From positions 3,739 through 67,738 of the forward strand of contig PLIC01000085.1 in NCBI GenBank assembly GCA_003139995.1: DNA of 64,000 bases. Reading direction: 5' to 3'. A program made the position numbers and the translations under genes. Under the pieces are notes generated by a model that was not told the DNA's origin, did no database searches, and saw only the letters and a list, made by a program, of their open reading frames with translations. How positions within the stretch are numbered: the first letter of the stretch is position 1; each line of letters starts with the position of its first letter. Positions 23,316 through 62,744 of this stretch are shown here, one piece after another. The DNA is from Acidobacteriaceae bacterium (GTDB lineage Bacteria > Acidobacteriota > Terriglobia > Terriglobales > Acidobacteriaceae).

Positions 23316-23339
23316 GATTGCTCTTCTCCTTACGGGTCC

Positions 23340-42695: not shown

Positions 42696-43343
42696 TCAGT
42701 TGATGCGGTTATGGCAGCCGCGGCTTTCGCGGGATTGTTGAGCGGCTTCGAGTATCAGAAGCGCCGTGAGGATGCCGTTGCGCAGGCCGATGATGGAATC
42801 GCCGACCTCGCACTTTTCGTAGAAACGCGCGATCTCGAGGTCGAGTTCGCGCAAGATCCGCATGGCCCGGTTCAGGCATCTCTTGCTTCGGATCAGGCCG
42901 ACATAATTCCACATCGTGTGCTGGATCGTCAGCCAATCTTGAGTGATGAGGACGGGGTCCGCCGGTTCATGTTCGTAGCGCCAATCCGCCACTTTGGGAA
43001 AGTAGAAATCGTCGCCTCGCGTGATGCCTTCGGCGGCATGCTCCCCGGCCCGCGTTCCCCAAACCAGGCATTCGAGCAGGGAAGTGCTGGCCAAGCGGTT
43101 GGCGCCGTGCAATCCGGTGCAGGCGACCTCGCCCGCCGCCAACCGAGAGGATGTCGGCAACAAGTTGTTCTGGGATTCCGATTGCGCGCGATAGATGATT
43201 CCGCCCTGCGCCCGATCAGTATTGCTTTCCTCAGGTTTTTCGGCGCGCGTCAGCAGAATGACTTGGCAGCCCCGTTTGGCGGCGTTCCAGGCGGCCGCCA
43301 GGCCAGCCAGGCCGAGGATATCGGTCTGTCAGGTGTCTTGCAT
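42696..43343 (-). pseudogene. nadB: L-aspartate oxidase remnant (in-frame TGA at codon 5 and ~300-codon internal deletion)
   Basis: Reads ATG CAA GAC ACC TGA, then in frame TDILGLAGLAAAWNAAKRGCQVILLTRAEKPEESNTDRAQGGIIY (FAD-binding N-terminus). This is joined directly to ..LAAGEVACTGLHGANRLASTSLLECLVWG... (the C-terminal ~150 aa). Confidence 0.75.
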
Positions 43344-43491
43344 CACGCGGGTTCAATCTCGAAGCTCAAGTCCACTGCCGGGGCGGAGTGGGTCAGCGCG
43401 CCGACCGAAATCCAGTCCACGCCGGTCTCCGCGAACTGCCTTATGTCGGCGAGCGTAATTCCGCCGGAGGCCTCGATGCGAATCTTTTTCG
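43343..43491 (-). pseudogene. nadC: Nicotinate-nucleotide pyrophosphorylase remnant (last ~45 codons only)
   Basis: [44 protein letters not shown] is the NadC C-terminus. Only 149 nt separate the nadA stop from the nadC stop. Confidence 0.7.
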
Positions 43492-44386
43492 TTAGATCGC
43501 GCGCCGGATCGCGCGCCAGAGCGTGCGCTTGTTCGCGTTGAGCGTCATGTGCGGGCATTCGCTGCACGAGCAGCCACCCTCGCCGGGAGCCGAAATGAAC
43601 TTTTTCTCGGGGGCAAGCCTTCTCCATCTGGTGGAGGATGCCGCTTTCGGTGGCGACAATGAACTCGGCCGCCGGGCTCTGTTCGGCGTATTTGAGAATT
43701 CCAGTTGTCGAGCCGACGTAATCCGCATGGCGCAGCACCGCTTCCGGGCACTCGGGATGCGCCAGTACCTTGGCTTGGCGATGGCGCTCCTTCAGTTGCA
43801 CCAGGCTGCGCTCGGAAAACATTTTGTGAACAATGCAGCTCCCCGGCCAAAGCCGCAGTTCCCGTCGCGTCTTCTTTATGAGGTAGCGGCCCAGATGCTG
43901 GTCGGGCGCGAACAAGATAGGCTGCGCCGGCGGAATCTGCCGGATGATCTTCTCCGCGTTGCTGGACGTGCAAATGATATCGCTGAGCGCTTTAACCTCG
44001 GCGCTGCAATTGATGTATGTGATCGCCACATGATCGAGGTAGCGCTTGCGAAACGCCTGGAACAAGTTCGCCGGACAGCCGTCGGCCAACGAACAACCTG
44101 CCTTCAGGTCGGGGAGCAGCACGGGCTTGGTGGGGTTGAGGATCTTAGCTGTCCCGGCCATGAAGAGCACGCCACAGAAAACGATCACATCCGCCGAGGT
44201 AGCCGCGGCTTTTTGCGAAAGTTGCAGGCTGTCCCCAACAAAATCGGCCAGGTCCTGAATTTCCGATTCCTGATAGTAGTGCGCCAGGATGACGGCATTC
44301 ATCTGGCGCTTGAGCCGCACGATTTCCTGCTCGAGATTGAGGCGCGCCAGGGGCTCGTGGTCCCCGGTCACTGTCGGAGCTATCAT
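43492..44386 (-). pseudogene. nadA: Quinolinate synthase with a +1 frameshift in a C5 run (G5 on the plus strand at 43609-43613)
   Basis: The upstream frame gives ..[10 protein letters not shown]...FMAGTAKIL...[12 protein letters not shown]...[15 protein letters not shown]. The conserved tail [23 protein letters not shown] is in the neighbouring frame (ORF 43492..43728). Removing one C restores [14 protein letters not shown]. Confidence 0.7.
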
Positions 44387-44545
44387 CGGACCTATCTAGT
44401 CTCATTATGGAGTAAGGCAATTTGCGATGCAAAAGCGCTCACCTTAAGGCTACGCCCGTTTCACCGCCATCGTAGGCTGACATCTGCATGAAGAACGGTC
44501 TGGCGAATCCGAAACCACCGCTCTGCAATCGGCAGGGTCTCCTCT

Positions 44546-46009
44546 GTGCTCCTCTGGGACCCCTGTTTCGAACTTTTCCCTCTTACCGCAACGCCCTCTG
44601 AAACACATCGCGAAGCCGGGCCAGCCCCGGACGGAACATTTCTGGCGCCACCAGCGTATCTGAACGCAGGTAACGAAATCGTCGTGCAAGAACTGCTTCA
44701 AGAATCGCTCTCTCTCTGGCGGCAGAACGGGGTCTGCCTCGCCCCGTTCGCCCGAACGTTCACGGCTGCCGAGCAAGCCGCCCGCGAAACTTACCTCGAC
44801 CGGTTTCTGCAGACAGTCGAAACGGAGTTGCGTGATCTGCCCAGCACCAGATCTGAACGCCGTTGCGCGCACGATCGCATCACCTCAGCCTTCACGAATT
44901 TTGCAAAAGCCTGTCTGGGCCTTGACGATAGTCATCTCGAACTCCTGCTAAACCACGGATTCTCAGCCATCGCCGCAGAACTCGCCCGGGAAGCCCGCCA
45001 TATCGATCCCGCCGTCAGCGCCGCTGACATTTTTCAAGCCAGTCGAAACGCGTGGACCGCGTGTGCTCTCCAAACTCTCATGGGACAACGCATGCGCCTC
45101 ACGCCCGCGATCTTCGCTTACAGCATGCTCTACCCCTACACCGATAATTATCTCGACGACCCGGCAATATCCCGCGACGCAAAGCTCGAATTCAGCGACC
45201 GGTTTCGCCGGCGTCTCGAGGGGTACGCGGCCGCTCCATTCAACGATCGGGAGGCCACCATCTGGCACCTTATTGGACTCATCGAAGAGCAGTACCGCCG
45301 CACCGACTGGCCCGAGGTCTATGCCAGCCTGTTGACGATCCACCGCGCACAGGAAAACAGCGTTCGCATGCTTCGTTTCGGCTCCTCCCCAGCTAACGTA
45401 GACGTTCTCAAACTCAGTTTCGAGAAGGGCGGCGCTTCCGTTGTGGCGGACGCCTGCTTGGTCGCAGGATCGCTCTCGCCCGATGAAGCTCGGGTCGCCT
45501 TTGGTTGGGGAGTGCTGCTGCAGTTGGTTGACGATCTCCAGGATATTCAGCAGGACCTTCGTGACGGGAACCTTACGGTTTTCACGGAATCTGCCGCATG
45601 CCTGCGTTCGGGTCCGCCTCCCGGCATGCCGCTCGATGATCTCACAACGCGCGCGCTGAATTTCGGCTACGGCGTCATGCGCCAAGTCGACCGCATGCCC
45701 TCAGATCACTCCGCGATCAAAGACGCAGCCCCGAAACACAAATCTCTAAAAGAAATGATTCGGATGAGTTCTTCGCTGCTGCTAATCTGGTCTGCCGGCG
45801 AGTCCGCCAAGCTCTATACCGGCAACTATCTTGCGGACCTTGAAACCCACTCGCCATTCCGCTTCGCCACTCTCGCCCAGAGACGCGGCAAGCTAAGCCG
45901 TTGGACCGGTCCCCTGGCCCGTATGTTCGAGTCGTTCCTCAAGGATAAGGATGAAGAGGACGGCGCCGCATCTCTCCTGCTCGCCAGCTTCTTCATGCCC
46001 CGCTTGTGA
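44546..46009 (+). CDS. Hypothetical protein with head-to-head isoprenoid-synthase-like (squalene/phytoene synthase fold) Asp-rich motifs
   Basis: Two DxxxD motifs sit 129 aa apart: YPYTDNYLDD (nt 45143-45160) and GVLLQLVDDLQDIQQDLRDGN (nt 45530-45565). The second resembles the A.QL.N..RD...D...GR motif of CrtB/SQS. The GTG start is uncertain. Confidence 0.4.
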   Translation: MLLWDPCFELFPLTATPSETHREAGPAPDGTFLAPPAYLNAGNEIVVQELLQESLSLWRQNGVCLAPFARTFTAAEQAARETYLDRFLQTVETELRDLPSTRSERRCAHDRITSAFTNFAKACLGLDDSHLELLLNHGFSAIAAELAREARHIDPAVSAADIFQASRNAWTACALQTLMGQRMRLTPAIFAYSMLYPYTDNYLDDPAISRDAKLEFSDRFRRRLEGYAAAPFNDREATIWHLIGLIEEQYRRTDWPEVYASLLTIHRAQENSVRMLRFGSSPANVDVLKLSFEKGGASVVADACLVAGSLSPDEARVAFGWGVLLQLVDDLQDIQQDLRDGNLTVFTESAACLRSGPPPGMPLDDLTTRALNFGYGVMRQVDRMPSDHSAIKDAAPKHKSLKEMIRMSSSLLLIWSAGESAKLYTGNYLADLETHSPFRFATLAQRRGKLSRWTGPLARMFESFLKDKDEEDGAASLLLASFFMPRL

Positions 46010-49124: not shown

Positions 49125-49477
49125 GGGGGAATCCTTTCTGGGAGGGCGAGGTTTCGAGAAGAACGACCGATTGCATCTGAAAACGGGCCCAATCACGCGT
49201 GCAATTACTGTGCATTTCCGTGGGAGTATACACGAAAACAACACACAAGCAACGATGAAACTCCTGTAAATGAACTTCTGATTCTAAGCGCGGCTACGGA
49301 TGCTCGCACTGTGCAAAAATAAACTGCACTTGATGTGTTCTCGCTCGCATTTTTTTGCACATTACTTACTGTAGGGCATCGTTCGGACTGTCCGAGACTT
49401 GGTGACTCAGGCGTGGTGGCGGCTGCGGAGAAATTTCCTCTTTGCTCTACACCGGCCGAACGTCGCCCCTCGCTGAG

Positions 49478-50101
49478 CTACCTCGCGCGGCGAGTTGCAC
49501 GCGCCATCTCCCCCCGGAAGCTCAGGAACGCCTTCTGCCCGGCGAGTTTCGCCAGTTGTTCGCGCTCATTTTCCAGAGGCATGCCCGCACGCAGAAACTG
49601 TTTCCGAAGTTTTCCGATGTGCTCCACAAACGGTCCCCACTCCGGCGGGAATTGCCGCTCCAATTCCTTTCGCAGCCGTGCCGCCAAGGCAGGACTGTTT
49701 CCGCTTGTAGAGATCGCAATCTGCAGCGGCCCGCGACGCACCACGGCCGGATAAAAAAAGTCGCAGTGCTCGGGATCGTCCACTACATTGCAGAGCACGC
49801 GCCGGGCCCGGCAAGCGCGAAACACGGCGCCGTTGGATGCAGCGGAATCGGTGGCGGCGACCACCAGAAACGCGCCTCGCACATCGCGGGACAAAAATGC
49901 CCGGCTTCGCCATACGAGCTTGCCCGATCGCGCTTTCTCGCGAATCCAGGCGACGGCTTTCGGGGCGACGACAACGACCTCAGCCCCATGGCTCAGCAAG
50001 CCAGCCGCTTTCGCCGCCGCCACGCGCCCCGCGCCCACCACCAGGCATTTCCGGCCCTGCAGCCGGACCATGATGGGGAAAACGATGATAGGGAACGCCA
50101 T
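49478..50101 (-). CDS. sirC: Precorrin-2 dehydrogenase / sirohydrochlorin ferrochelatase (CysG N-terminal / SirC-Met8 type)
   Basis: FPIMVRLQGRKCLVVGAGRVAAAKAAGLLSHGAEVVVVAP...NVVDDPEHCDFFYPAVV. Divergent from dsrA. Confidence 0.8.
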   Translation of the reverse strand: MAFPIIVFPIMVRLQGRKCLVVGAGRVAAAKAAGLLSHGAEVVVVAPKAVAWIREKARSGKLVWRSRAFLSRDVRGAFLVVAATDSAASNGAVFRACRARRVLCNVVDDPEHCDFFYPAVVRRGPLQIAISTSGNSPALAARLRKELERQFPPEWGPFVEHIGKLRKQFLRAGMPLENEREQLAKLAGQKAFLSFRGEMARATRRAR

Positions 50102-50237
50102 GTAACCCCCGCATTTTCAATCGGGTCGGACCAGACCATGATACCCCAAACTGGGCACTCCGCACGCCATCTGCGGGGTCTCAGTTTTCATCCGCGGGTC
50201 ATTTTTCCGGCGATTCTTCGGCGCAGTCACCACGCCC

Positions 50238-50253
50238 TGTGATCGATGTCACA
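50238..50253. promoter_or_regulatory. Perfect CRP/FNR-family palindrome TGTGA-TCGATG-TCACA in the sirC/dsrA divergent region
   Basis: Read directly. It lies 116 nt upstream of the dsrA ATG. A -10-like TAGTAAT follows 19 nt downstream (50273-50279). Confidence 0.5.
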
Positions 50254-50368
50254 TACCGGCGACGGCTATTCCTAGTAATCTTATGGACAAGATGATGTTG
50301 TCCCCTCTTCGTCCCGTGGCCGCTTGCGACTCCAGGCCGATTCCCCCAAGAACCTAAGGAGATAGGTG

Positions 50369-51568
50369 ATGGCCAATGACAGCGGCGAGAAACCGGAAAC
50401 CAAGATGTTGGACGAACTGGAAAAAGGTCCATGGCCGAGCTTCGTGAAGGAGATCAAGTCGGCTGGCCAAACCAGCGCCAGCGCCCAGGATCTCCTTCGC
50501 CAGTTGGAGCTTTCCTACCAGGAGAAGAAAGGGCATTGGAAGCACGGCGGCTTAGTCGGCGTGCTCGGCTACGGCGGAGGCGTCATCGGGCGCTACAGCG
50601 ATGCCGGCGATCAGTTTCCCAAGGTCGCTCAGTTCCACACCCTACGCGTCAACCAGCCTGCGGGATGGTTCTACACCAGCGACGCGATTCGCACTCTCTG
50701 CGACATTTGGGAGCGCCACGGCTCCGGCCTCACTAACATGCACGGGTCCACCGGCGACCTCATTCTGCTGGGCACCGGCACGGCTGAACTGGAGCCCACA
50801 TTCCAAGAGCTGGCGCAGGCTGGGTTCGATCTGGGCGGCTCCGGATCCGCGTTTCGCACTCCTTCTTGCTGCGTCGGCATGGCCCGCTGCGAATGGGCGT
50901 GTTATGACGCGATGAAACTGTGTTACGACCTGACCATGGCGTACCAGGACGAAATGCATCGTCCACCCTTCCCTTACAAGTTCAAAGTCAAGTGCGCCGC
51001 CTGCCCGAACGATTGCGTGGCGGCCATTGCCCGCGCCGATCTTTCTATCATCGGCACCTGGAAGGACGAAATTCAGGTGGACGAGAGCGCCGTGAACGAG
51101 TACGCGTCCGCTGGCCTCAACCTCCAGAAGGACGTCTGCGATCTCTGCCCCAGCAAGTGCATGGCATGGGATGGCCACAAGCTCAGCATTGAAAACCACG
51201 AATGCGTGCGCTGCATGCACTGCATCAACGTCATGCCCAAAGCGCTGCGGCCCGGCAAAGAGCGCGGAGCGGTCATCATGATCGGAGGCAAGGCGCCCAT
51301 CATGCAAGGCGCTCTGCTTTCTTCCGTCCTCGTTCCTTTCGTGCCTGCGGAAGAACTCATGGACACTTTGAAGGAGTTGATCCGCCGCATCTGGGATTTC
51401 TGGGACGAATACGGCAACAATCGGGAGCGGGTTGGTGAACTGATCCAGCGCGTGGGGCTGCCCGTGTTCCTCGATGGTATTGGTCTCGACCCCGTTCCGG
51501 AAATGGTCTCCGCGCCCCGCGACAATCCTTACATTTACTTTCAGGTTGCGAAGGACGGTGAGAAATGA
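50369..51568 (+). CDS. dsrA: Dissimilatory sulfite reductase alpha subunit
   Basis: [19 protein letters not shown]-terminus. Sirohaem-[4Fe-4S] Cys cluster ([12 protein letters not shown] ... CAACPNDC) and ferredoxin insert ([12 protein letters not shown]). AAGGAG lies 7 nt before the ATG. Confidence 0.9.
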
Positions 51569-52647
51569 GCGCCACACCCCAACCTCGGCTCACCGACATC
51601 GGGCCGCCGCATTACGAAAAATATCTGCATCCTTTGATCAAGAAGAACTACGGCCAGTGGAAGTACCACGAGAATCTGGCCCCCGGAGTCTATTGCCATG
51701 TTGCGGAATCGGGTGACCGCATCTACACGGTGCGCGCGGGCACGCCGCGTCTGCTAAGTATCCACACGCTGCGGAAGTTTGCTGACTTGGCCGACAAATA
51801 TTCTGGCGGCTATCTACGCTTCACCAGCCGGAACAATCTCGAGTTTCTGCTCGACGATCCGGCCCGGATCGAGCCGCTGAAGCGGGAACTGATCGCCCTG
51901 GGATATCCGGTGGGCGGCACTAATAACGCCATCAGCAACATCGTCCATACCCAGGGATGGATCCATTGCCATTCCTCGGCAACCGACGCTTCGGGACTGG
52001 TCAAGTGCGTGATGGACGCTGTTTACGAACGCTTCACGCACGAGGACCTTCCGGCAAAATTGCGGATCGCGGTCGCCTGCTGCCTGAATATGTGTGGCGC
52101 GGTGCATTGTTCCGACATCGCCATCCTCGGCGTTCACCGCCTCCCCCCGAAAATCCAGCATGGCACGCTGCCCAAAGTATGCGAGGTGCCAACGCTGATC
52201 GCCGCCTGCCCGACCGGGGCGATTCGTCCGGCGATCGTGGACGGCAAGAATTCGGTCGCAGTGGTGGAGCAGCAGTGCATGTATTGCGGCAATTGCTACA
52301 CCGTATGCCCCGCCATGCCCATGAACGATGCGGAGAATGACGGTTTATCCATCTGGGTGGGCGGCAAGGTGAGCAATGCGCGGAGCGTGCCAAAGTTTTC
52401 CAAGCTGGCGATCCCGTTCCTCCCCAACCATCCTCCGCGCTGGCCCGAGGTGGTTGAGGCCGTGGTGAAGATTGTGAACGTTTATGCGAAACACGCGCGC
52501 AAATACGAACGGGTGGGCGAGTGGATCGAGCGCATCGGTTGGCCGCGCTTTTTCCAACTGACCGGGTTCGAGTTCACGCGTTATCACATTGACGACTTCA
52601 AACATGCGGCGCTGACCTACGCGCGGTCGGCGCACGTTCGCTATTGA
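51565..52647 (+). CDS. dsrB: Dissimilatory sulfite reductase beta subunit
   Basis: [27 protein letters not shown]...[10 protein letters not shown]...[16 protein letters not shown]...[16 protein letters not shown] overlap with dsrA. Confidence 0.9.
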
Positions 52648-52686
52648 AGTGCGTCTTCGGACCTCCCCCTACGAGGAAGCTGGTTG

Positions 52687-54348
52687 ATGGGGCTGTTCAA
52701 GGAAGTCGAGAAGCCGGTGATTCGAAGCGTGGCGGCGGCTGCCAGTGAGATCAGCCCGCTGCGTCCTCGCTTCGCGCCCAAAGCGCCGCCGTGCGCCTCG
52801 GGCTGCCCCAACGGCACCGAAATTCGCGAGCTGCTAGTGATCGTCGCGCAAGCCAAAGACTACGGCTTGACGCATGAACAAGCTTTCGACCGCGTTTGGA
52901 AAAGAATCGTGGAGCGCAACCCATTCCCCGCAGTCACGGGCCGAATCTGTCCGCACCCTTGCGAAACTGCGTGTAACCGCAGCGCCAAGGATGGAGCGGT
53001 GGCGTTCAATGCGATCGAACGCATGATCGGAGATTTTGGGATTGCCAACAAGCTGAGGCTCTCGCCGCTGACGACTCAGCCCCGCGCAGAAAAAGTTGCG
53101 GTCATTGGCGCGGGCCCGGCGGGGTTGTCCTGCGCCTATCAACTGGTTCGGCGAGGATACGCGGTCGCTGTTTTCGAAGCCTTGAACGAGCCGGGAGGTA
53201 TGTTGCGTTACGGTATTCCGGGATTCCGCTTGCCGCGTGAAGTTCTCGACGCGGAGATCGGCCGCATTCTCGATCTCGGAGTCGAGCTGCAGTGCAATTG
53301 CGCCGTGGGCAAGGATATTTCCCTGGAGCAACTCCGCCAGGAATATGCAGCCGTATTCGCCGGCATTGGCGCACAAAAAGGGATCAAGTTGAATTTGGCG
53401 GGCGAGGATGCGCCGAACGTGATCAGCGGGATCGAATTCCTCAATCTGGTCAACCGCGGAGAAAAAATCGGCGTCGGAAGCAAAGTGATCGTGATCGGCG
53501 GAGGCGACACCGCCATTGACGCCGCCCGCGTCAGCAAGCGGCTCGGCGCCGAGGTCACCGTCCTCTATCGCCGCACGCGCGCCGAAATGCCGGCCATCAA
53601 GTCCGAGATCGAAGGCGCGCTCGAAGAAAGTGTGAAGATCGAATACTTGGCCGCGCCGCTCGAAATCCTGCGGCAGAACAGACGCGCCGTAGGCATGCGC
53701 TCGATTCGCATGCAGCTTGGCGAACCGGATTCCTCGGGCCGTCCGCGCCCCGTGCCTCAGCCCGGCAGCGAATTTGAAATGGAGGCGTCCTGCGTCATCG
53801 CGGCGATCAGCCAGGCGCCCGATTTCCAGGGTCTGGAGACTCTGCCCAACGGCGACGGCTGGATCAAAATTGACGATTGGGGCGGGACCGCCGTTGACGG
53901 AATCTTCGCCGGCGGCGACGGCGCTGGACTCGGTATCGCCGCTGTTGCCATTGCCCAGGGCCGGTTGGCGGCCCAGGCCATCGACGCGCGTTTTCAGGGA
54001 CGCAAGTTGGAAAAGCCGCCCGCGTTGCCTGCCATCCCGATCGAGAAGCTGAGGCTTGACTGGTATCCGGCGGCGCCGCGGCGCGAAGCGCAGCGGGTTT
54101 CGGTCACGGAGCGCGAACTCGGCACCGAGGTCGCGTTCGGTTTAACTGAAGCTGAAGTGCTCGAAGAGGCCAAGCGCTGCATGTCTTGCGGCATGTGCAT
54201 GGATTGTGAAGCCTGCTGGATGTACTGCAGCAACAACTGTTTTGTCAGGCTGCCGAAAGGCGAACATTGCAAGATCAGGCTGGAAGTCTGCAACGGGTGC
54301 AAGAAGTGCGCCGACGCATGTCCGAGCGGATATATCGAACTGAGTTGA
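52687..54348 (+). CDS. dsrL: DsrL-like NAD(P)H oxidoreductase (GltD-like flavoprotein with C-terminal 2x[4Fe-4S] ferredoxin domain)
   Basis: GRICPHPCETACNR; two dinucleotide folds (VAVIGAGPAGLSCAY, VIVIGGGDTAIDAA); C-terminal CMSCGMCMDCEACWMYC...CNGCKKCADACP. It sits between dsrB and dsrC. Confidence 0.8.
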   Translation: MGLFKEVEKPVIRSVAAAASEISPLRPRFAPKAPPCASGCPNGTEIRELLVIVAQAKDYGLTHEQAFDRVWKRIVERNPFPAVTGRICPHPCETACNRSAKDGAVAFNAIERMIGDFGIANKLRLSPLTTQPRAEKVAVIGAGPAGLSCAYQLVRRGYAVAVFEALNEPGGMLRYGIPGFRLPREVLDAEIGRILDLGVELQCNCAVGKDISLEQLRQEYAAVFAGIGAQKGIKLNLAGEDAPNVISGIEFLNLVNRGEKIGVGSKVIVIGGGDTAIDAARVSKRLGAEVTVLYRRTRAEMPAIKSEIEGALEESVKIEYLAAPLEILRQNRRAVGMRSIRMQLGEPDSSGRPRPVPQPGSEFEMEASCVIAAISQAPDFQGLETLPNGDGWIKIDDWGGTAVDGIFAGGDGAGLGIAAVAIAQGRLAAQAIDARFQGRKLEKPPALPAIPIEKLRLDWYPAAPRREAQRVSVTERELGTEVAFGLTEAEVLEEAKRCMSCGMCMDCEACWMYCSNNCFVRLPKGEHCKIRLEVCNGCKKCADACPSGYIELS

Positions 54349-54366
54349 TAACTAAGGAGAGTAACT

Positions 54367-54684
54367 GTGCCGCTATTCGAAGTCGAGGGAAGAAGTTACG
54401 AAGTGGATGAAGACGGCTTCTTGCAGGAGCCGGAACGCTGGAACCGGGAGGTGGCCAAGGACTTCGCTGCTACTGAGGCCATCGCCGATCTGACCGAGGA
54501 ACACTGGAAGATCATTCACTACATCCGCAATTACTACCTGGAGTTCGGGATCGCGCCCATGATTCGCAAGCTCTGCAAGGAAACCGGGCACAAACTGAAC
54601 GAGATCTACAAGCTGTTCCCATCCGGGCCGGCGAAGGGCGCGTGCAAGCTGGCGGGGCTGCCGAAGCCCACAGGCTGCGTGTAG
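54367..54684 (+). CDS. dsrC: DsrC (TusE/DsrC/DsvC family) with both conserved C-terminal cysteines
   Basis: MPLFEVEGRSYEVDEDGFL...EHWKIIHYIRNYY and C-terminal ..GACKLAGLPKPTGCV. GTG start after AAGGAG. Confidence 0.9.
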   Translation: MPLFEVEGRSYEVDEDGFLQEPERWNREVAKDFAATEAIADLTEEHWKIIHYIRNYYLEFGIAPMIRKLCKETGHKLNEIYKLFPSGPAKGACKLAGLPKPTGCV

Positions 54685-54691
54685 AAATCAA

Positions 54692-55165
54692 ATGGACGCG
54701 AACGAGGCCATCCTCGAACAGTGGGTCGTGCGGACGGCGGAATCCTACCCGCATCACGCGGCGGCTCTTCTGAGCAAAGAGCGGGATCCCTTTCGCAATC
54801 CGGTTGGCGATACGCTGCGCCAGAGCCTGGCGCTGCTGCTGCGCGAGTTATTCGCCGAGATGGATGCAACGGCAATCGATTCCGCCCTCGACCCCATCAT
54901 CCGGCTCCAAGCGATTCAAGGGTTCTCTTCCGACGACGCCGTGCGATTCGTATCTCTGTTGAAACCCATTCTCCGTGAACTGGCGCCGGAACGAAACTCT
55001 GCAGTCCTTGATCGTCGGATCGATGATGACAGGATCAATCGGCTCGCGGTGATGGCTGCAGACAAGTGCACACAATGCCGCGAGCAACTGGCTCGAATCC
55101 GGGCGAACGAAGTTCAGCGCGCGAACCATGTGCAACAACGTATCCGCGCGAGGCGGCCCGCATGA
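54692..55165 (+). CDS. dsrT: DsrT-like protein (RsbRD N-terminal-type domain)
   Basis: Located directly upstream of dsrMKJOP, as in sulfate reducers and Chlorobi. The pattern ILEQWVVRTAESYP...DPFRNPVGDTLRQSL is what I recall for this family. Confidence 0.55.
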   Translation: MDANEAILEQWVVRTAESYPHHAAALLSKERDPFRNPVGDTLRQSLALLLRELFAEMDATAIDSALDPIIRLQAIQGFSSDDAVRFVSLLKPILRELAPERNSAVLDRRIDDDRINRLAVMAADKCTQCREQLARIRANEVQRANHVQQRIRARRPA

Positions 55166-56175
55166 AAGCCCTCTCTCCGCTGCTGGCCGTTCTCGCGATT
55201 GTTGGGTTCGCCGTCGTAGGCGGGCACACGCATGCTGGCCTTGTTTTTCTGGCTGTGTTCGTTCCCTATGCGGCCTTCGCGGTTTTCCTAGTTGGCTTCT
55301 GTTACCGTGTGGCGCGCTGGGCGTGGATCCCTGTACCGTTCCGCATTCCCACCACTTGCGGCCAGCAAAAGTCGCTGCCCTGGATCAAACCTGCATCGCT
55401 GGACAACCCCAGCACCGGCTGGGGCGCATTCCGCCGTATGGCGCTGGAAATCCTTCTGTTCCGTTCCCTGTTCCGCAACAATCGCGCGCGGCTGCACGAT
55501 CGGCGGCTTGTACTGGGCGAAGACAGATATCTATGGCTGGGCGCTCTTGCGTTTCATTGGTCGTTGCTGGTGATTCTGCTTCGGCACCTGCGTCTGTTTG
55601 TCCAGCCCGTTCCAGTTTTCGTAAGTGTGCTCTCGCGACTGGACGGCGCTTTTCAAGTGGGAACTCCTGCACTTTATATCTCTGACGTGGTCATTCTGGG
55701 CACGCTGGTGTACCTGACCGCACGGCGATTTCGCAACCCGCTGGCTCGCTACCTATCAATGCCGATCGATTACCTGGCCTTGTTTCTTCTGCTGGGAATC
55801 GTGACTTCCGGCCTGCTCATGCGCTTCGTAGTCCGAGTAGACGTGGCTGCGATCAAGCAGTTTGCGCTCGGATTGGCCGTCTTCCGCCCGGTAGTTACAA
55901 GCGCCATAACTCCGATATTTCTCGTCCACTTACTTTTGGTCAGCGCCCTGGCTGCATATTTCCCGTTCAGCAAGCTCATGCACATGGGCGGTGTCTTTCT
56001 CAGCCCCACGCGTAATCTGGCCAACAACAATCGCAGCAAGCGCCACGTCAACCCCTGGAATCATCCAGTGAAAACCCACTCCTATGCGGAGTGGGAGGAC
56101 GAGTTCCGAGACAAACTGAAAACCGCGAACCTTCCGCTTGAGGCTGAGGATGCCCGACAAATTACTGGCCATTGA
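55162..56175 (+). CDS. dsrM: DsrM (NarI-like dihaem b membrane subunit)
   Basis: Polytopic membrane protein with conserved His in TM helices. ATGA overlap with dsrT. Its position is typical for dsrM. Confidence 0.8.
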   Translation: MKALSPLLAVLAIVGFAVVGGHTHAGLVFLAVFVPYAAFAVFLVGFCYRVARWAWIPVPFRIPTTCGQQKSLPWIKPASLDNPSTGWGAFRRMALEILLFRSLFRNNRARLHDRRLVLGEDRYLWLGALAFHWSLLVILLRHLRLFVQPVPVFVSVLSRLDGAFQVGTPALYISDVVILGTLVYLTARRFRNPLARYLSMPIDYLALFLLLGIVTSGLLMRFVVRVDVAAIKQFALGLAVFRPVVTSAITPIFLVHLLLVSALAAYFPFSKLMHMGGVFLSPTRNLANNNRSKRHVNPWNHPVKTHSYAEWEDEFRDKLKTANLPLEAEDARQITGH

Positions 56176-57748
56176 ACAGAAACGTCCCGAAGGCGATTGG
56201 CGCGATGCTAAGGTCGAGTTTCGCAAAGGGACGATCTGTTACAGCGCGGCGCCGAAAAACATCACCTATCTCAGTCTGCCCAACCCCCGCGAGTGGCAGC
56301 CTTTCGACGCGGACTGGAAACTTCCGCCCAACTGGAAAGAAATCATTCTCAAAGGCATGAAAGAGCGATTGCGGAAGTACCGCTCTTTTCGCCTATTCAT
56401 GGAAATCTGCGTACGCTGCGGCGCCTGCGCCGACAAGTGTCATTTCTATGTCGGCTCCGGCGATCCCAAGAACATGCCAGTGCTGCGCGCCGAGTTGATG
56501 CGCTCGGTTTATCGCCGCTATTTCACCCTCACGGGGCGGCTTTTTAGGGCGCTCGTGGGCGCGCGCGAGCTGACTGAAGACGTCATCAAGGAATGGTTCT
56601 ACTACTTTTATCAGTGCACCGAGTGCCGGCGCTGTTCGGTTTTTTGTCCTTATGGGATCGACACGGCCGAGATCACTATGATGGGCCGCGAGTTACTCGA
56701 CCTGATCGGCTGCAACATCAATTGGGTCATGGAGCCTGCCGCAAACTGTTTCCGCACCGGCAATCATCTTGGAGTGCAGCCGCACGCTTTTCAGGACAGC
56801 ATTCAATTCGCCGCCGATGAAGCAAAGGAAATCACGGGCCTGCCCATCGAAGTTCCCATCAACCGCAAAGGCGCGGAGATTCTTTTCGTCATGCCCTCGG
56901 CCGATTATTTTGGCACCCCGCATTACTACACACTGCTCGGCTATCTGATGCTGTTTCACGAAATCGGGCTTGACTACACAGTTAGTGCCTTTGCTTCGGA
57001 GGGCGGCAACTTCGGCCTCTTTTCATCGCACGAACTAATGAAGCGGCTCAATGCCAAGATCTACGAAGAAGCGAAGCGGCTGCGCGTCAAATGGATTCTG
57101 GGCGGCGAGTGCGGCCACATGTGGCGCGTGTTCCATCAGTATATGGACACGATGAACGGGCCGGCCGATTTTCTGGAGCCGCCGGTTTCGCCCATTACCG
57201 GGACGCATTTCGAGAACGCCCGCTCCACGCGCGCCGTCCACATTTGCGAGTTCACCGCCGACCTGATTCATCACGGCAAACTTCGGCTCGACCCTCGCCG
57301 CAACGATCGTTGGAACGTTACTTACCACGACTCCTGTAATCCTTCGCGCGCCATGGGGTTGCTGGAAGAGCCGCGCTACATCCTGAAAAACGCTTGCCGG
57401 AATTTCCACGAGATGCCGGAGAACACGATCCGCGAACAAACCTTCTGCTGCGGCAGCGGCGCCGGACTCGGCACGGATGAGAACCTGGAGATGCGCCTGC
57501 GCGGCGGCTTTCCGCGCGCCAACGCCGTCAAGCACGTAAGGGAAAAACATGGCGTGAACTTGCTGGCTTGCATTTGCGCCATCGACAAGGCAACGCTGCC
57601 CACGCTGATGGAGTACTGGGTCCCTGGCGTCGAGGTCGCCGGCGTGCACGAGTTACTGGGGAATGCGCTGGTGATGACCGGAGAAAAAGAACGAACCACT
57701 GACTTGCGCGGCGAACCACTGGTACGGGAGGAGGCTACGCGTGAGTGA
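56150..57748 (+). CDS. dsrK: DsrK (HdrD-like Fe-S/CCG-domain catalytic subunit)
   Basis: CVRCGACADKCH, CTECRRCSVFCPYGID and the CCG motif region FCCGSGAG. Confidence 0.85.
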   Translation: MPDKLLAIEQKRPEGDWRDAKVEFRKGTICYSAAPKNITYLSLPNPREWQPFDADWKLPPNWKEIILKGMKERLRKYRSFRLFMEICVRCGACADKCHFYVGSGDPKNMPVLRAELMRSVYRRYFTLTGRLFRALVGARELTEDVIKEWFYYFYQCTECRRCSVFCPYGIDTAEITMMGRELLDLIGCNINWVMEPAANCFRTGNHLGVQPHAFQDSIQFAADEAKEITGLPIEVPINRKGAEILFVMPSADYFGTPHYYTLLGYLMLFHEIGLDYTVSAFASEGGNFGLFSSHELMKRLNAKIYEEAKRLRVKWILGGECGHMWRVFHQYMDTMNGPADFLEPPVSPITGTHFENARSTRAVHICEFTADLIHHGKLRLDPRRNDRWNVTYHDSCNPSRAMGLLEEPRYILKNACRNFHEMPENTIREQTFCCGSGAGLGTDENLEMRLRGGFPRANAVKHVREKHGVNLLACICAIDKATLPTLMEYWVPGVEVAGVHELLGNALVMTGEKERTTDLRGEPLVREEATRE

Positions 57749-58145
57749 TCGTCCACTTATTCTCGCGGGCCTGACTCTTTTCGTCGGACTGGTAACGACG
57801 CCGATCTGGCACGGCGCTCTCGATAGGAAGGCGGCCTTGACCGCTCCGCCGATCCAGCTTCCTGCGCAGGAAAAGCAGTGCGTAGCACCCGCGAGTTACA
57901 TGCGCAGTTCGCACATGCAGTTGCTGGAACATTGGAGAGATGAGGCGGCGCGCGATGGGCGGAGGCAGTTCGTCGCATTCAACGGGAAGATTTACGACAA
58001 GAATCCCACCCGCACCTGCGTCACGCAATGCCACACCGACCGCAAGGAATTTTGCGAACGGTGCCATGACTATGCCGGTGTTTCCGATCCAGATTGTTGG
58101 AATTGCCACAACGATTCCCAGCGAACTTCGAGGAGTGCGCCATGA
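57741..58145 (+). CDS. dsrJ: DsrJ (trihaem cytochrome c, membrane anchored)
   Basis: N-terminal TM helix and three haem motifs: CVTQCH (CX3CH), CERCH, CWNCH. GTG start overlaps dsrK by 8 nt. Confidence 0.8.
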   Translation: MSDRPLILAGLTLFVGLVTTPIWHGALDRKAALTAPPIQLPAQEKQCVAPASYMRSSHMQLLEHWRDEAARDGRRQFVAFNGKIYDKNPTRTCVTQCHTDRKEFCERCHDYAGVSDPDCWNCHNDSQRTSRSAP

Positions 58146-58921
58146 AGATTACGCGAAAAGATTTTCTTCGGATTTCGGGCCTGGGCTTGCTGGCTGTGGC
58201 AGGAAGGAAAGCTGTCCGCGCAGTGGCCGAACGAACGTCCGAGCGAGCGTCCGAGCAAACGTCCGCGCCGTTCGCGAAACAGGTCCGCTGGGGCATGGCG
58301 ATTGATCTGCAGAAATGCCGTCAAAAAGACGGCTGCGACCGCTGCATCAAGGCGTGCCACTCGACGCACAACGTGCCGCAATTCTCCGACCGCGCGCACG
58401 AGGTCAAGTGGATATGGAAGGAGCCGTTCAAGAATGTATTTCCCGCCGCGCAGACCGGCTACACACGCGAGTTTTTCGGAAACCTTCCCGTGTTGCTGGT
58501 GTGCAACCACTGCGACGATCCTCCCTGCCAGGACGTTTGCCCGGTCAAGGCAACCTGGAAACGAGAGGACGGCGTGGTCACCATCGACTTTCATCGCTGC
58601 ATCGGCTGCCGCTATTGCATGGCTGCCTGCCCGTATGGTGCGCGCAGCTTTAACTGGCTGGATCCCCGGCCAGCCATCGCAACTGTGAACCTGGATTTCC
58701 CGACCCGCACCAAAGGTGTGGTGGAGAAGTGCAATTTCTGCGAAGAACGGCTGGCGAAAGGGCTGGGACCGGCTTGCGCCGAGAGCTGCGAGGAGAAAGC
58801 CATCGTGTTCGGCGATCTCGAAAAGCCAGACTCCGAGGTGCGCCGACTGCTGCGATCGCGCTTTGCGGTGCAGCGCCAACCGGAATTGGGCACTGGCCCT
58901 GCTGTGTATTACATCGTCTGA
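58142..58921 (+). CDS. dsrO: DsrO (periplasmic 4Fe-4S ferredoxin-type subunit, Tat-like signal)
   Basis: MKITRKDFLRISGLGLLAVAG, then CIGCRYCMAACPYGA and CNFCEERL..G..PACAESC. ATGA overlap with dsrJ. Confidence 0.85.
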   Translation: MKITRKDFLRISGLGLLAVAGRKAVRAVAERTSERASEQTSAPFAKQVRWGMAIDLQKCRQKDGCDRCIKACHSTHNVPQFSDRAHEVKWIWKEPFKNVFPAAQTGYTREFFGNLPVLLVCNHCDDPPCQDVCPVKATWKREDGVVTIDFHRCIGCRYCMAACPYGARSFNWLDPRPAIATVNLDFPTRTKGVVEKCNFCEERLAKGLGPACAESCEEKAIVFGDLEKPDSEVRRLLRSRFAVQRQPELGTGPAVYYIV

Positions 58922-58929
58922 GTGTGCTT

Positions 58930-60087
58930 ATGTTCATGTTTGAAAAAGCGCTCACGGGAGGCCGCAAATACTGGCTCTGGATAACCTCACTCTTCTTGTT
59001 AGTTCTGGCAGGTTCTCTTTGTTATGTCTTACAACTGACGCACGGGCTGGCCGTCACCGGACTCAGCCGCGATGTAAGTTGGGGCCTCTACATTGCGCAA
59101 TTCACCTTCTTTGTGGGTGTCGCCGCTTCCGCGGTCATGGTAGTTCTGCCCTACTATCTGCACGATTACCAACAATTTGGCCGCATCACCATCCTTGGCG
59201 AACTTCTGGCGGTCACGGCGGTTACGATGTGCATTCTTTTCATCTTCGTCGACTTGGGCCAGCCTACGCGGATTGTCAACATCGTGCTTCATCCCCAGCC
59301 GAAGTCGGTGATGTTTTGGGACATGATTGCGCTCGGCGGTTATCTACTGATGAACGCGGCGATCGCCGTGGTCACACTGACCGCGCAACGCGAACAAGTA
59401 CCGGCTCCCGGCTGGATCAAGCCCGTGATTATCCTCTCGATTCCATGGGCAATCGGCATTCATACGGTCACCGCATTTCTCTATAGCGGATTGCCCGGCC
59501 GATCTTACTGGCTGACGGCGATTCTGGCGCCGCGTTTCCTGGCTTCGGCTTTTGCTTCGGGGCCGGCCTTGTTGATCCTTCTGTGTCTGGCCTTGCGGAA
59601 GTTGTCCGGCTTTGATGCGGGGCGGGAAGCCATCCAGAAGCTCGCGGTCATCGTGACCTACGCCCTCGCCATCAATATGTTTCTCATCCTGGCAGAGGTC
59701 TTTACCGCTTTCTACAGCGAGATTCCGGCGCACGAAGAGCACTTCGAGTATCTCTTCATCGGCCTCAACGGCGATCGGCACCTGGTGCTCTGGATGTGGC
59801 TCTCGACGCTGCTTTCCGGGGTTGCATTGGCATTGCTGCTGGTTCCAAAGTGGCGAAACAACATCCGTCTGCTGGTGGTGGCATGCGTGTGTGTTTTCGT
59901 TTCGATCTGGCTGGACAAGGGACTCGGACTGATTGTTGGTGGCATGGCGCCTTCACCACTCGGAGCGGTCACGCGGTATGTTCCCACGCTACCCGAATCG
60001 GCTATCGTTCTCGGGATTTGGGCCAGCGGCGCCTTGATGATCACGGTTTTCTACAAGATCACGCTCTCGGTTTGGGAGGATAACTAA
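58930..60087 (+). CDS. dsrP: DsrP (NrfD/PsrC-type integral membrane quinone-interacting subunit)
   Basis: 385-aa polytopic membrane protein following dsrO. ATG 58930 (MFMFEKALTGGRKYWLW). Confidence 0.8.
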   Translation: MFMFEKALTGGRKYWLWITSLFLLVLAGSLCYVLQLTHGLAVTGLSRDVSWGLYIAQFTFFVGVAASAVMVVLPYYLHDYQQFGRITILGELLAVTAVTMCILFIFVDLGQPTRIVNIVLHPQPKSVMFWDMIALGGYLLMNAAIAVVTLTAQREQVPAPGWIKPVIILSIPWAIGIHTVTAFLYSGLPGRSYWLTAILAPRFLASAFASGPALLILLCLALRKLSGFDAGREAIQKLAVIVTYALAINMFLILAEVFTAFYSEIPAHEEHFEYLFIGLNGDRHLVLWMWLSTLLSGVALALLLVPKWRNNIRLLVVACVCVFVSIWLDKGLGLIVGGMAPSPLGAVTRYVPTLPESAIVLGIWASGALMITVFYKITLSVWEDN

Positions 60088-60175
60088 CAACAGAACTAAT
60101 AAGGATGACTCGTTCTATGGTTTGCGATTGAGGCACGACGATGATTTTGAAAGAGAGAATTGAAAGAGAGCATTC

Positions 60176-61072
60176 ATGACGAACATTGGCAAAGTATATT
60201 TGGTGGGCGCAGGACCGGGACATCCTGATCTTCTTACGATCCGGGCGGCCGAAATTCTCAAGACCGCTGAAGTGATCGTGTACGACCGGCTGATCCAGGA
60301 TGAGGTCCTGGCGCTGGCCAAGCCTTCTGCCGAAAAGATCTTCATGGGCAAGCCGTTGGGCAGGCATGCTTCGCGACAGAACGAGATCCACGATCTGCTG
60401 GTCCGCAAGGCCCGCGAAGGCAGAATGGTGGTGCGCCTCAAGGGCGGCGATCCGTTTTTGTTCGGTCGCGGCGGCGAGGAAGCCGAGTATCTTGCGGAGC
60501 ATGGGGTTACCTTCGAAGTAGTTCCGGGAGTTTCTTCCTGCCTGTCCGCGCCGCTGAGCGCCGGAATCGCAGTTACTCACCGCGACCGGGCCTCGTCCGT
60601 CGCTATTGTTACCGGCCATCAGGCGGCGGAGCATGAGGATCGGGTGGATTGGCAAGCGCTGAGCAAAGTCGACACTCTGGTCGTTCTCATGGGCATCCAC
60701 AATATCGACCACATCACCAGGAAGTTGATGGCGGCCGGCCTCGCTCCCGATACTCCAGCCGCGATCGTTCAGATGGCCTTCTGGGAAAGTGAGCGAGTTA
60801 TCGCTTCAACGCTGGGCACGATTACAGAAGACGCTCGTCGCGCAGCTATCGAGCCTCCGGCGACTCTCGTGATTGGGGAGGCGGTGCGCCTGCGCGAGAA
60901 ATTGAAACATCATCAACAACACATCGGACAGCACTCCGGCCGCGATCCCTTGATTCACGTTGTTCCTATCCCTGACCGGTCCTCGGGCGACACGCTAAGT
61001 CTAGACACGCTAAGTCTGGAAGAGGAGAGTTGCGTGGTGCCTGCATCGTGCGAGAAAGAGGTTCTCCAATGA
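60176..61072 (+). CDS. cobA: Uroporphyrinogen-III C-methyltransferase (SUMT) with ~45-aa C-terminal extension
   Basis: VYLVGAGPGHPDLLTIRAAEILKTAEVIVYDRL...VVRLKGGDPFLFGRGGEE...VPGVSS. The tail contains the direct repeat DTLSLDTLSL. Confidence 0.85.
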   Translation: MTNIGKVYLVGAGPGHPDLLTIRAAEILKTAEVIVYDRLIQDEVLALAKPSAEKIFMGKPLGRHASRQNEIHDLLVRKAREGRMVVRLKGGDPFLFGRGGEEAEYLAEHGVTFEVVPGVSSCLSAPLSAGIAVTHRDRASSVAIVTGHQAAEHEDRVDWQALSKVDTLVVLMGIHNIDHITRKLMAAGLAPDTPAAIVQMAFWESERVIASTLGTITEDARRAAIEPPATLVIGEAVRLREKLKHHQQHIGQHSGRDPLIHVVPIPDRSSGDTLSLDTLSLEEESCVVPASCEKEVLQ

Positions 61073-61323
61073 CGGATACGACATCGGTCCCTATCGAGAT
61101 TCTGGCGGAAGAAATGTACCAGCTGGTTGCGGACTGCGCCGGGAAGAAGAACTTGAAACCCGGCGATCTGACTAAAGAGATGATCGCCAAACACGGCCCA
61201 GCTTGCAGCAAAGACGACTGCAAGAAGGCCCTGCGAATCTTGATCGACTCAAGCCGCTGCGTCTACAGCTATCTCGGAGGCACTTACATTCAACTTCCGC
61301 CTAAGCCTGGCAGTGAAATATGA
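61069..61323 (+). CDS. dsrD: DsrD-like small winged-helix protein
   Basis: 84 aa. KKNLKPGDLTKEMI...DCKKALRILIDSSRCVYSYLGGTYIQLPP parallels the ..EVKKILTALVNDEVLEYWSSGSTTMYGLK region I recall from Desulfovibrio DsrD. ATGA overlaps on both sides. Confidence 0.5.
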   Translation: MTDTTSVPIEILAEEMYQLVADCAGKKNLKPGDLTKEMIAKHGPACSKDDCKKALRILIDSSRCVYSYLGGTYIQLPPKPGSEI

Positions 61324-62744
61324 CGGATTCTCGGCCCATGCCGCGCCTGCTGATTGGCGGTATGTCCGGCGGTTCGGGCAAGACACTGGTTTCGCTCGCG
61401 CTGCTGCTGGCCCTGCGCCGGGCCGGATTCCAGGTCCGCGCATTCAAGAAGGGTCCCGACTATATCGACGCTGCTTGGCTAAGTTGGGCAGCATCTTACC
61501 CCGCTCGCAATCTCGACACTTACTTGATGGGCCGAGACACCGTTCGCTCGTCGTTTGTGCGTGCTGGGATCACGGATGGCGTCAACCTCATCGAAGGCAA
61601 TCGGGGAATATTCGACGGATTCGACGCCGCTGGCACGCACAGTAGTGCCGCCCTCAGCCACTGCCTCGCCGCGTCAGTGGTGCTCGTGATCAACGTCGCC
61701 AAAGTCACGCGCACCGCAGCGGCTTTTGTCGCAGGATGCCGGGCACTTGATCGGGAGCTTCCGATTCGCGGCATCATTCTGAACAACGTGAATGGCCAGC
61801 GGCATGAGGAGGTCTTGCGTGCGGCGATTGAGTCTGCATGTGCGATCCCTATAGTTGGCACAATTCGTAAGGCCGCGGTCAACCCGCTGCCCGAGCGCTA
61901 TCTCGGATTGGTTCCTCCGCAAGAACACGCCGGAACGGCGCAAATCCAGGAGAATTTATTGAAACTGGCGGACGGGTTCGATTTAGACGCCATCGTCTCA
62001 ATCGCGCGGAGTGCGCCTTCGCTGGAGACCGATCCCACGGAGGTTGCGGTATCAGCCGTGAAGGACATCAAGGTTGGCTATCTGCGCGACTCGGCGTTTA
62101 GTTTCTATTACCCGGAAAATTTGGAGCAGTTGGAGCATGGGGGTGCCGAACCCATCCCAGTTTCCGCGCTTCAGAGCAGCGCTCTGCCAGAAGGGCTATG
62201 CGCGTTATACATCGGAGGCGGCTTTCCAGAAAAACACGCGGAAGTGCTGTCGTCGAACCGGAGTTTCCTGGAGTCGGTCCGGGAAGCAGCGCTCGGAGGT
62301 CTGCCAATTTACGCCGAATGCGGAGGTCTAATGCTGCTGGCCCAAACGCTGCGCTGGGAGGGCAGAACGTATCCGATGGCCGGAGTTTTCCCATTCGATG
62401 TGGAAGGCTTCAACACGCCACAAGGCCACGGTTACAGCGAGTTGCGCGTCGACCGGCCGAACCCGTTTTTTCCTGCTGGGCTCGTTCTTCGCGGCCATGA
62501 GTTCCATTACTCACGCATTTTGCTTGGGGATGAACCGGTTCCGACCGCTTGCGCAGTAATTCGCGGCGTGGGATGCTTTCAGAAACGCGACCTTGTTATC
62601 ACGAGAAATGTAATGGCAGGTTATACCCACTTACATGCCCTGGCCACTCCCGAATGGGCGAAAGGCTTTCTGGATGCGGCGCGCCGCTTCGAGCCTCGTG
62701 CCGCGCACCGAAACATTTCACATACTGTTGAAGCGATGGGCTAA
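61320..62744 (+). CDS. dsrN: DsrN (cobyrinic acid a,c-diamide synthase family; sirohaem amidase)
   Basis: PRLLIGGMSGGSGKTLVSLALLLALRRAGFQVRAFKKGPDYID, plus a C-terminal glutamine amidotransferase part (YAECGGLMLL...GHEFHYS). Confidence 0.8.
   Translation: MTDSRPMPRLLIGGMSGGSGKTLVSLALLLALRRAGFQVRAFKKGPDYIDAAWLSWAASYPARNLDTYLMGRDTVRSSFVRAGITDGVNLIEGNRGIFDGFDAAGTHSSAALSHCLAASVVLVINVAKVTRTAAAFVAGCRALDRELPIRGIILNNVNGQRHEEVLRAAIESACAIPIVGTIRKAAVNPLPERYLGLVPPQEHAGTAQIQENLLKLADGFDLDAIVSIARSAPSLETDPTEVAVSAVKDIKVGYLRDSAFSFYYPENLEQLEHGGAEPIPVSALQSSALPEGLCALYIGGGFPEKHAEVLSSNRSFLESVREAALGGLPIYAECGGLMLLAQTLRWEGRTYPMAGVFPFDVEGFNTPQGHGYSELRVDRPNPFFPAGLVLRGHEFHYSRILLGDEPVPTACAVIRGVGCFQKRDLVITRNVMAGYTHLHALATPEWAKGFLDAARRFEPRAAHRNISHTVEAMG

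Follow-up and report, generated by a model that had tools for sequence, protein, structure and literature searches.

Do the nadA, nadC and nadB sequences of an uncultured acidobacterium still encode the enzymes for de novo synthesis of NAD? The locus that raises this question resides in a 64,000-nucleotide stretch of DNA (hereafter called the window) from an Acidobacteriaceae bacterium (GCA_003139995.1, contig PLIC01000085.1, forward-strand positions 3,739-67,738), where an earlier reading of the letters alone (the original prediction) proposed an operon decayed by three independent lesions. All three genes are indeed represented on the minus strand where that prediction placed them. We conclude, with a probability of about 0.85, that positions 44435-42696 of this strand are what is left of a defunct nadA-nadC-nadB operon of a peat-soil member of the Terriglobia. 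The extent of the damage had been underestimated, as evident by at least seven damaging events within the operon, and none of the three remnants can yield an active enzyme. These events constitute ordinary gene decay and require no new mechanism.

Relatives with an intact operon carry nadA (320-321 amino acids), nadC (296-321 amino acids) and nadB (521-529 amino acids) in that order. The lesions and their breakpoints, their polymorphism and their reproducibility across assemblies are directly observable, and the base composition of the remnant region is unremarkable. The features discussed below, all on the minus strand, are as follows.

44387-44435: upstream block of 49 nucleotides with a sigma-70-like TTTGCA-18-CATAAT at 44433-44404; blastn homology to L007 and L009 begins at 44435
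43614-44386: in-frame body of nadA, codons 1-258; Pfam NadA 1-246/295, E=4.5e-105
43609-43613: C5 homopolymer (plus-strand G5), a +1 insertion; C4 in other alleles
43533-43612: nadA tail in the shifted frame, with the third Cys-rich motif; homology to nadA stops at ~43533
43343-44386: chimeric open reading frame (ORF) of 347 amino acids, comprising NadA 1-258, ~30 out-of-frame residues and the NadC C-terminus
43494-43528: 12-bp tandem array, AGATCGCGCGCC x 2.9 (Tandem Repeats Finder)
43343-43519: nadC remnant, ~57 terminal codons and their stop TGA (43345-43343); QRPTase_C 122-168/169, TIGR00078 223-269/269
43133-43343: nadB 5′ remnant, ~70 codons with three small lesions
43133-43140: nadB deletion junction with a single GGCGGCGG, evident from overlapping blastn matches
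42696-43139: nadB 3′ remnant, the last 147 codons plus stop; NadB profile 370-515/537

Lesions in nadA, nadC and nadB

The body of nadA shares 90.6% nucleotide identity (blastn) with the intact gene of its closest relative, locus L007. In the window, the conserved 23-residue NadA tail is read in a frame that differs from that of the gene body and lies in a separate ORF (43492-43728). As originally predicted, the frame switches at the run of five G nucleotides of the plus strand, and deleting one C restores it. This run comprises four bases in all intact relatives and in three other alleles of the locus. Because the shift happens to land in the nadC frame, the reading frame continues into the nadC remnant and creates the 347-residue ORF, whose nature as an accidental chimera was also recognized correctly. 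Its product matches the NCBIfam NadA profile (4-253/306) followed by that of nadC (223-269/269), and ~30 unmatched residues separate the corresponding Pfam matches to NadA and QRPTase_C.

Once the extra C is removed, the product reaches 293-297 amino acids and lacks the final 36 residues of all 107 relatives. The C4 alleles P0133 and P0134 accordingly specify an in-frame product of 293 amino acids, and the C4-frame ORF ends at a TAA at 43494-43492. No single ORF in the window extends across the full NadA profile (~300-320 amino acids in this clade). The three Cys ligands do not reside in one polypeptide in the window; the third Cys-rich motif, which we take to provide a ligand for the [4Fe-4S] cluster, is in frame only in C4 alleles, and alignment to Thermotoga maritima NadA (4P3X) stops just before this motif. 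Moreover, at positions conserved in at least 95% of the 107 relatives, the window nadA carries four residues found in none of them (Q6V, E78G, G174R and E188K), compared with a median of zero such residues among the relatives. The positions of E78 and E188 are 100% conserved and that of G174 is 98% conserved, and the equivalent of E78 is a Glu in T. maritima NadA as well. Family-invariant residues are therefore not kept.

Homology to the L007 nadA stops at 43533, 110 nucleotides before the end of the gene, which corresponds to the loss of 36 codons. Homology to nadC resumes at ~43519-43514, 57 codons ahead of the nadC stop by both tblastn and blastn, and tblastn assigns this remnant to NadC residues 257-313. 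These alignments show that a single deletion of ~815 bp took the 36 terminal codons of nadA along with the spacer and ~230 codons of nadC, with at most ~3 nucleotides of microhomology at the junction. The view that only the 3′ end of nadC survives is therefore sustained, although the proposed length of ~45 codons is too short, and the ends lost from nadA and nadC cannot be counted as independent lesions. The deleted ~230 codons encode the N-terminal domain and most of the catalytic barrel of NadC. Of the domains that together mark this enzyme (PF02749 and PF01729, or TIGR00078), PF02749 is absent, the barrel is incomplete, and the remnant has no start codon of its own. The 12-bp array is located just downstream of the nadA/nadC junction, inside the start of the nadC remnant, and its copy number varies, as evident by the absence of 43517-43528 from loci L012 through L014.

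The nadB gene alone carries four lesions. Its ATG (43343-43341) overlaps the nadC stop in the sequence TGATG, and codon 5 is a TGA (43331-43329), both as originally described; this codon is TTA in relatives. A 12-bp in-frame loss between 43314 and 43313 removes the residues VIGS and converts DILVIGSGLAGL to DILGLAGL, and the GxGxxG motif is therefore destroyed. A deletion of one nucleotide between 43174 and 43173 causes a -1 frameshift, such that PEQLVADILSVGGG is read in another frame. Finally, a 905-bp deletion joins GTTGGCGGCGG to GCGAGGTC and keeps one copy of GGCGGCGG. L104, whose nadB is intact, has this octamer at gene coordinates 220 and 1125. The event was therefore a deletion between two 8-nucleotide direct repeats, 905 bp apart in the intact gene; L192 retains the undeleted 3′ site.

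What follows the junction is 88% identical at the nucleotide level to the nadB genes of L004, L103 and L104, and is called as an ORF of 148 amino acids that starts at 43142. Matches in the nadB frame comprise FAD_binding_2 positions 8-46 and then NadB profile positions 370-515/537. Neither the GxGxxG motif nor a continuous ORF, as expected of NadB (TIGR00551 / PRK09077), is present, and the central FAD/capping catalytic region (approximately residues 76-376) is missing, with profile positions ~47-369 absent. A tally of three lesions for the operon is thus too low, given the four in nadB and the radical changes at invariant sites of nadA. We found no insertion sequence (IS) element or long repeat flanking the deletion junctions, in agreement with the earlier reading.

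The 49 nucleotides upstream of nadA probably represent its retained promoter or 5′ leader, a proposal based on the conservation of this block. The sigma-70-like site is the only one in the region, and one site found versus 0.7 expected in the scan is not significant by itself. NAD+ riboswitches are known upstream of acidobacterial nadA genes. No match to the class I representative (nadA motif, Rfam) was obtained at E<=10 in positions 44300-44650 of the window, nor in five intact relatives.

Recurrence and order of the lesions

The exact 347-residue chimera is present in 103 blocks of the public collection (NCBI, JGI, ENA and Logan). The contigs that carry it reach 607 kb, one contig is seen in at least 20 samples, and three chimera loci match the window with 100% identity over 17.7-21 kb. 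The locus is also present in other haplotypes. Loci L012-L014, from three JGI samples, have C4 and one 12-bp unit fewer, encode a 293-residue nadA ORF, and are otherwise identical to the window over 11.6 kb. A more distant haplogroup, comprising L181 and L184-L188, shares 98.2% identity with the window over 10 kb. It carries both deletions and all nadB lesions of the window, along with C4 and a Q150* nonsense mutation in nadA (43939 C>T). L181 has an additional E215* mutation in this gene (43744 G>T). In L185-L187 the 12-bp repeat is contracted too, which gives a C4-frame nadA tail of 35 rather than 39 codons and a nadC-frame ORF of 67 rather than 71 amino acids. L183 combines a window-like nadA with a 4-nucleotide patch typical of L181.

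Reads that support an intact run of four C nucleotides had been named among the evidence that would overturn the case for decay. Such runs do exist in part of the population (P0133 and P0134; L012-L014 and L181-L188), but they do not rescue nadA because the C4 alleles carry the deletions as well, and nonsense codons are added in L181 and L184-L188, the haplogroup with Q150*. The C5 frameshift is polymorphic and is the youngest lesion. An Arg/Trp difference at NadA residue 24 (CGG>TGG at 44317) is found with both C4 and C5 (P0121, P0132, P0133 and P0134), and therefore either the run length changed more than once or the alleles recombine. The locus thus exhibits both disabling lesions, relative to intact orthologues, that recur in independent data and separate secondary lesions in different lineages, as expected for a pseudogene.

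These haplotypes suggest a course for the decay. The ~815-bp nadA/nadC deletion and the four nadB lesions, which are common to every haplotype seen, are the older events, and the 905-bp nadB deletion arose by slippage or illegitimate recombination between the two GGCGGCGG repeats. The lesions that differ by haplotype are younger: the extra C and the third 12-bp copy in the window, and Q150* or E215* elsewhere. We infer that a native, vertically inherited operon decayed in place once selection for de novo NAD synthesis was lost.

Substitution patterns in nadA are suggestive of relaxed constraint. The ratio of nonsynonymous to synonymous substitution rates (dN/dS) between the window and L007 is 0.19, and intact pairs give 0.05-0.10. 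A parsimony count assigns 16 nonsynonymous and 11 synonymous changes to the window branch, and 9 and 10 to the L007 branch. Changes on the window branch are often radical (E>G, G>R, E>K, P>L and P>R), whereas those on the L007 branch are all conservative. The gene was still under constraint during most of its divergence from L007.

Between haplogroups, the remnant is ~3.6-fold more divergent than the flanks sampled in L181 (38/1691 versus 12/1941), with differences across the remnant biased toward synonymous sites and distributed 14/2/21 over the three codon positions. Synonymous divergence is 0.19 in dsrA, 0.14 in the nadB 3′ remnant and 0.07 in dsrL, and 0.005-0.03 in the kumamolisin-like gene, a 487-residue gene adjoining nadA, and the ASPIC and TPR genes. 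Given this mosaic of synonymous divergence across the entire locus, the synonymous bias in the nadB 3′ remnant probably derives from recombination tracts rather than from selection. The high value for dsrA, compared with the low values a few kilobases away, likewise indicates an imported recombinant tract. The population would thus appear to recombine, with divergent patches imported from lineages in which the genes are under selection. Either the lesion-bearing core may have moved between haplogroups, or its arms may have been imported later. One tentative possibility, which we hold to be somewhat less likely than its alternatives taken together, is that an abundant sulfur-cycling peat species, fed niacin by its community, is fixed for the loss of de novo NAD synthesis, and that the loss allele (core 43738-43129) perhaps spread not just by descent but by homologous recombination. 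Spread of the core between diverged haplogroups would explain why the arms are synonymous-biased and the core is nearly identical.

Alternative explanations and NAD supply

One alternative is that the frameshift is a homopolymer sequencing error and the deletions are assembly collapses. The frameshift does occur in a homopolymer, and a C4 version of the locus exists. However, the C5 allele is assembled identically in many short-read assemblies made by different pipelines (megahit k141, JGI and others) from at least 20 samples, every haplotype, even one that is 1.8% diverged, carries the two large deletions and the full set of nadB lesions, and the additional nonsense mutations differ from haplotype to haplotype. 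Furthermore, the nadB junction repeat of 8 nucleotides is far shorter than assembler k-mers. An artefact, which had been named as a way for the proposed decay to fail, is therefore extremely improbable, and we consider it excluded. It is also very improbable that selection maintains the remnant in some new role, either as the chimera (perhaps via a programmed +1 shift at CCC-C) or as the 148-residue NadB ORF. The sequence CCC-CGA is a classic context prone to +1 shifting, which the shift site matches, the remnant ORFs are whole enough for pipelines to call and name as genes, and the ratio of nonsynonymous to synonymous polymorphism (pN/pS) in the nadB 3′ remnant is 0.08-0.11 between haplogroups. 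Yet a programmed +1 frameshift calls for a conserved site and a complete product, and neither is found: all relatives have C4, and the shifted-in frame still lacks the final 36 NadA residues. The Q150* and E215* haplotypes destroy the chimera, comparable synonymous-rich patches in neighboring genes fit recombination, and the 149-residue ‘NadB C-terminal’ ORFs seen elsewhere reflect gene-caller starts after frameshifts rather than a protein family.

A more serious alternative is that the remnant is a spare copy in an organism that has another functional de novo set, be it an old paralogue or horizontally acquired genes, and is thus no NAD auxotroph. We judge this unlikely, but its probability is not negligible. 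The flanks of the remnant, which are a divergent 487-residue gene and a convergent ASPIC/UnbV gene, are unlike the context in three related lineages, in which nadACB follows NrdR, Iso_dh, COX15 and an ABC transporter and precedes anti-sigma and STAS genes, and the tetranucleotide composition of these NrdR-context loci is close to that of the window (r=0.97-0.985). From 42686 the window has ASPIC/UnbV and TPR genes where L184 differs, and the remnant is therefore at a structural-variant boundary; the L184 flank diverges 10 nucleotides past the nadB stop. In addition, L007 and L008 have a broken nadB with intact nadA and nadC, which hints at another source of iminoaspartate in the clade. Against a spare copy, the intact NadA proteins closest to the remnant share 89-90% and then 87% identity with it, and no intact NadA at 91-99% identity was found even though the species is present in >100 assemblies. 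RNase R from the window has relatives at 95% (P0259, from a sister lineage), 90% and 89%, followed by a cloud at 85-89%. The distance from the remnant to intact NadA thus equals the orthologous distance of RNase R, with no near twin, which argues for a native copy; on this sequence comparison, a recent intact duplicate is excluded. Odd context is weak evidence, given that the surroundings of nadACB vary across Terriglobia (L007, L009 and L102-L104 all differ). A metagenome scan that used the deleted part of NadC in search of an intact allele at this locus returned best matches in other contexts; these NadC N-termini, the nearest intact ones in JGI metagenomes, share only 83-85% identity with the N-terminus of the sister lineage and reside in GC-richer DNA. 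Tetranucleotide similarity, considered as a means to link a second locus to the genome, lacked discriminating power among taxa this close, and the L184 flank, which served as positive control, had the lowest score.

Several points nevertheless weigh against our conclusion that a native operon has decayed. A divergent second nadABC set may exist elsewhere in the genome, a scenario to which we likewise give a low but appreciable probability, or xenologous replacement may have occurred. The genes that flank the remnant differ from the nadACB flanks in every relative examined, and position is therefore no proof of orthology. The nonsynonymous excess on the window nadA branch is not statistically significant, and differences between haplogroups in the nadB 3′ remnant (15:5, synonymous:nonsynonymous) would at face value indicate purifying selection.

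Any de novo route to NAD, whether it starts from aspartate or from tryptophan, needs NadC. Therefore, an organism with no second set must salvage a pyridine precursor. From the decay of the operon, it seems reasonably likely that this bacterium depends on salvaged nicotinate, nicotinamide or riboside; no NAD salvage genes were found within the window. Annotation pipelines name the pieces quinolinate synthase, nicotinate-nucleotide pyrophosphorylase and L-aspartate oxidase, and a module-based reconstruction of this metagenome-assembled genome (MAG) would therefore give this dead de novo NAD pathway a complete score. Errors of this kind affect auxotrophy predictions for uncultured bacteria. If the genome lacks a second set, niacin or riboside would be required to culture this dsr-carrying acidobacterium. 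The haplotypes also give an order of events in a free-living bacterium, wherein large deletions came first, and slippage and nonsense mutations came later and are lineage-specific.

Partial relics of the NAD pathway are found in group A streptococci, where nadC is kept or decayed in the absence of nadA and nadB. Pieces of the quinolinate pathway thus persist in a salvage-dependent genome, as might be the case here, but the phylum and lifestyle are different. Inactivation of nadA or nadB in Shigella causes nicotinic acid auxotrophy, and these genes are considered ‘antivirulence’ loci (PMC7373316). As in the window lineage, the de novo NAD genes of Shigella were struck by several independent lesions across lineages and recognizable pseudogenes were left behind (PMC7373316). 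However, Shigella is adapted to its host and has lost genes in large part through IS elements, whereas the window derives from a free-living peat bacterium whose operon was damaged by microhomology deletion, by slippage in a homopolymer and a tandem repeat, and by point mutations, with no IS element. Also unlike Shigella, nadC is destroyed too, and the loss has no known selective benefit. In E. coli NC101, a nadA point mutation leads to niacin auxotrophy and dependence on external nicotinic acid, a single change with experimental proof (PMC8207962), whereas here a whole operon is degraded and the evidence is its DNA. A free-living soil host, the absence of IS elements, damage to all three genes, and haplotypes that document the order of events set this example apart from the known cases.

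Neighboring genes and related loci

A complete acidobacterial dsr island is located at 50366-62744 (plus strand), and this dsrAB-dsrL-dsrC-dsrMKJOP island resides in the same organism as the dead nad operon. It encodes DsrA (400 amino acids), DsrB (360), DsrL (554) and DsrC (105), followed by an RsbRD_N protein, dsrM-like (Nitrate_red_gam) and dsrK-like (Fer4) genes, a 134-residue ORF, and dsrO-like and dsrP-like (NrfD) genes; it further holds a TP_methylase gene and a dsrN-like CobB/CobQ amidase gene. Peatland Acidobacteria MAGs SbA1-7 carry dsrAB-dsrL-dsrC (PMC6018796), and the window likewise has dsrC and dsrL paired downstream of dsrAB. Despite this similarity, the 487-residue protein of the window is just 50% identical to its SbA3 homologue, and the window therefore represents a different lineage. 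Terms related to auxotrophy, quinolinate, nicotinate or vitamins (auxotroph-, quinolinate-, nicotin- and vitamin-) do not occur in the main text of PMC6018796. A sirohaem-synthase-like gene lies on the minus strand, and the plus-strand ORF at 49442-50239 is spurious and has no Pfam match.

The 487-residue protein (44546-46009, plus strand) that adjoins nadA has no Pfam match and carries a DDLQD motif. Its homologues occur in 423 GTDB genome stretches from Acidobacteriota, Chloroflexota, Actinomycetota, Bacteroidota and Bipolaricaulota at 35-78% identity and are not linked to nad or dsr genes. Among 80 GTDB loci, neither nad genes nor another shared flank was found near these homologues, and tblastn gave no match for dsr genes there. 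The best homologue is only 78% identical, and therefore the species in the window is apparently not among the GTDB representatives. Between haplogroups, the gene shows 3 synonymous versus 5-7 nonsynonymous differences.

L007 (6774-7264) and L008, which represent the closest relative with an intact nadA, encode intact NadA (320 amino acids) and NadC (296 amino acids). Their nadB has a 4-nucleotide gap at codons 6-7, its homology ends at approximately codon 40 and unrelated AT-rich sequence follows; no tblastn match to NadB was obtained. None of the lesions of the window is shared, and therefore nadB was lost independently in both lineages. Another relative’s contig (L005; GCA_049592035.1, JBAWFQ010000242.1) carries an intact nadACB. 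Split or frameshifted nadB genes occur in other Terriglobia as well (L189, 1230-1450; L190; proteins P0154, P0181, P0188, P0195 and P0232). In L189, a change from G4 to G3 in TGGGG produces ORFs of 390 and 149 amino acids. Several of these cases, on very long contigs, could be long-read indel errors rather than real pseudogenes. A stand-alone family of 149-residue NadB C-terminal proteins was considered and rejected, as its supposed members are gene-caller starts at a Leu codon that is conserved and follows frameshifts or contig ends. The downstream flank of L184 (10626-19376; GC 0.546) holds a Peptidase_S9 gene, a CarboxypepD_reg/outer membrane protein (OMP) gene, and genes for an anti-sigma factor and an extracytoplasmic function (ECF) sigma factor.

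Two long plus-strand ORFs lie antisense to the nad remnant, at 42711-43541 (276 amino acids) and 43523-44491 (322 amino acids). Some public assemblies annotate the first of them as a gene (L184, 9771-10601; L012, 10845-11663). Both are probably spurious ORFs of GC-rich DNA. Elsewhere in the window, a full iron-sulfur cluster (ISC) operon on the minus strand (17790-23807) encodes Rrf2/IscR, IscS, IscU (NifU_N), IscA (Fe-S_biosyn), a DnaJ-domain HscB-like protein and HscA (Hsp70), and a second cysteine desulfurase-like gene is present at 62759-63997. The sole Rfam family found in the window is the Acido-Lenti-1 small RNA motif (RF01687) at 726-771 on the plus strand, with a score of 57.3 bits versus a gathering score of 37.

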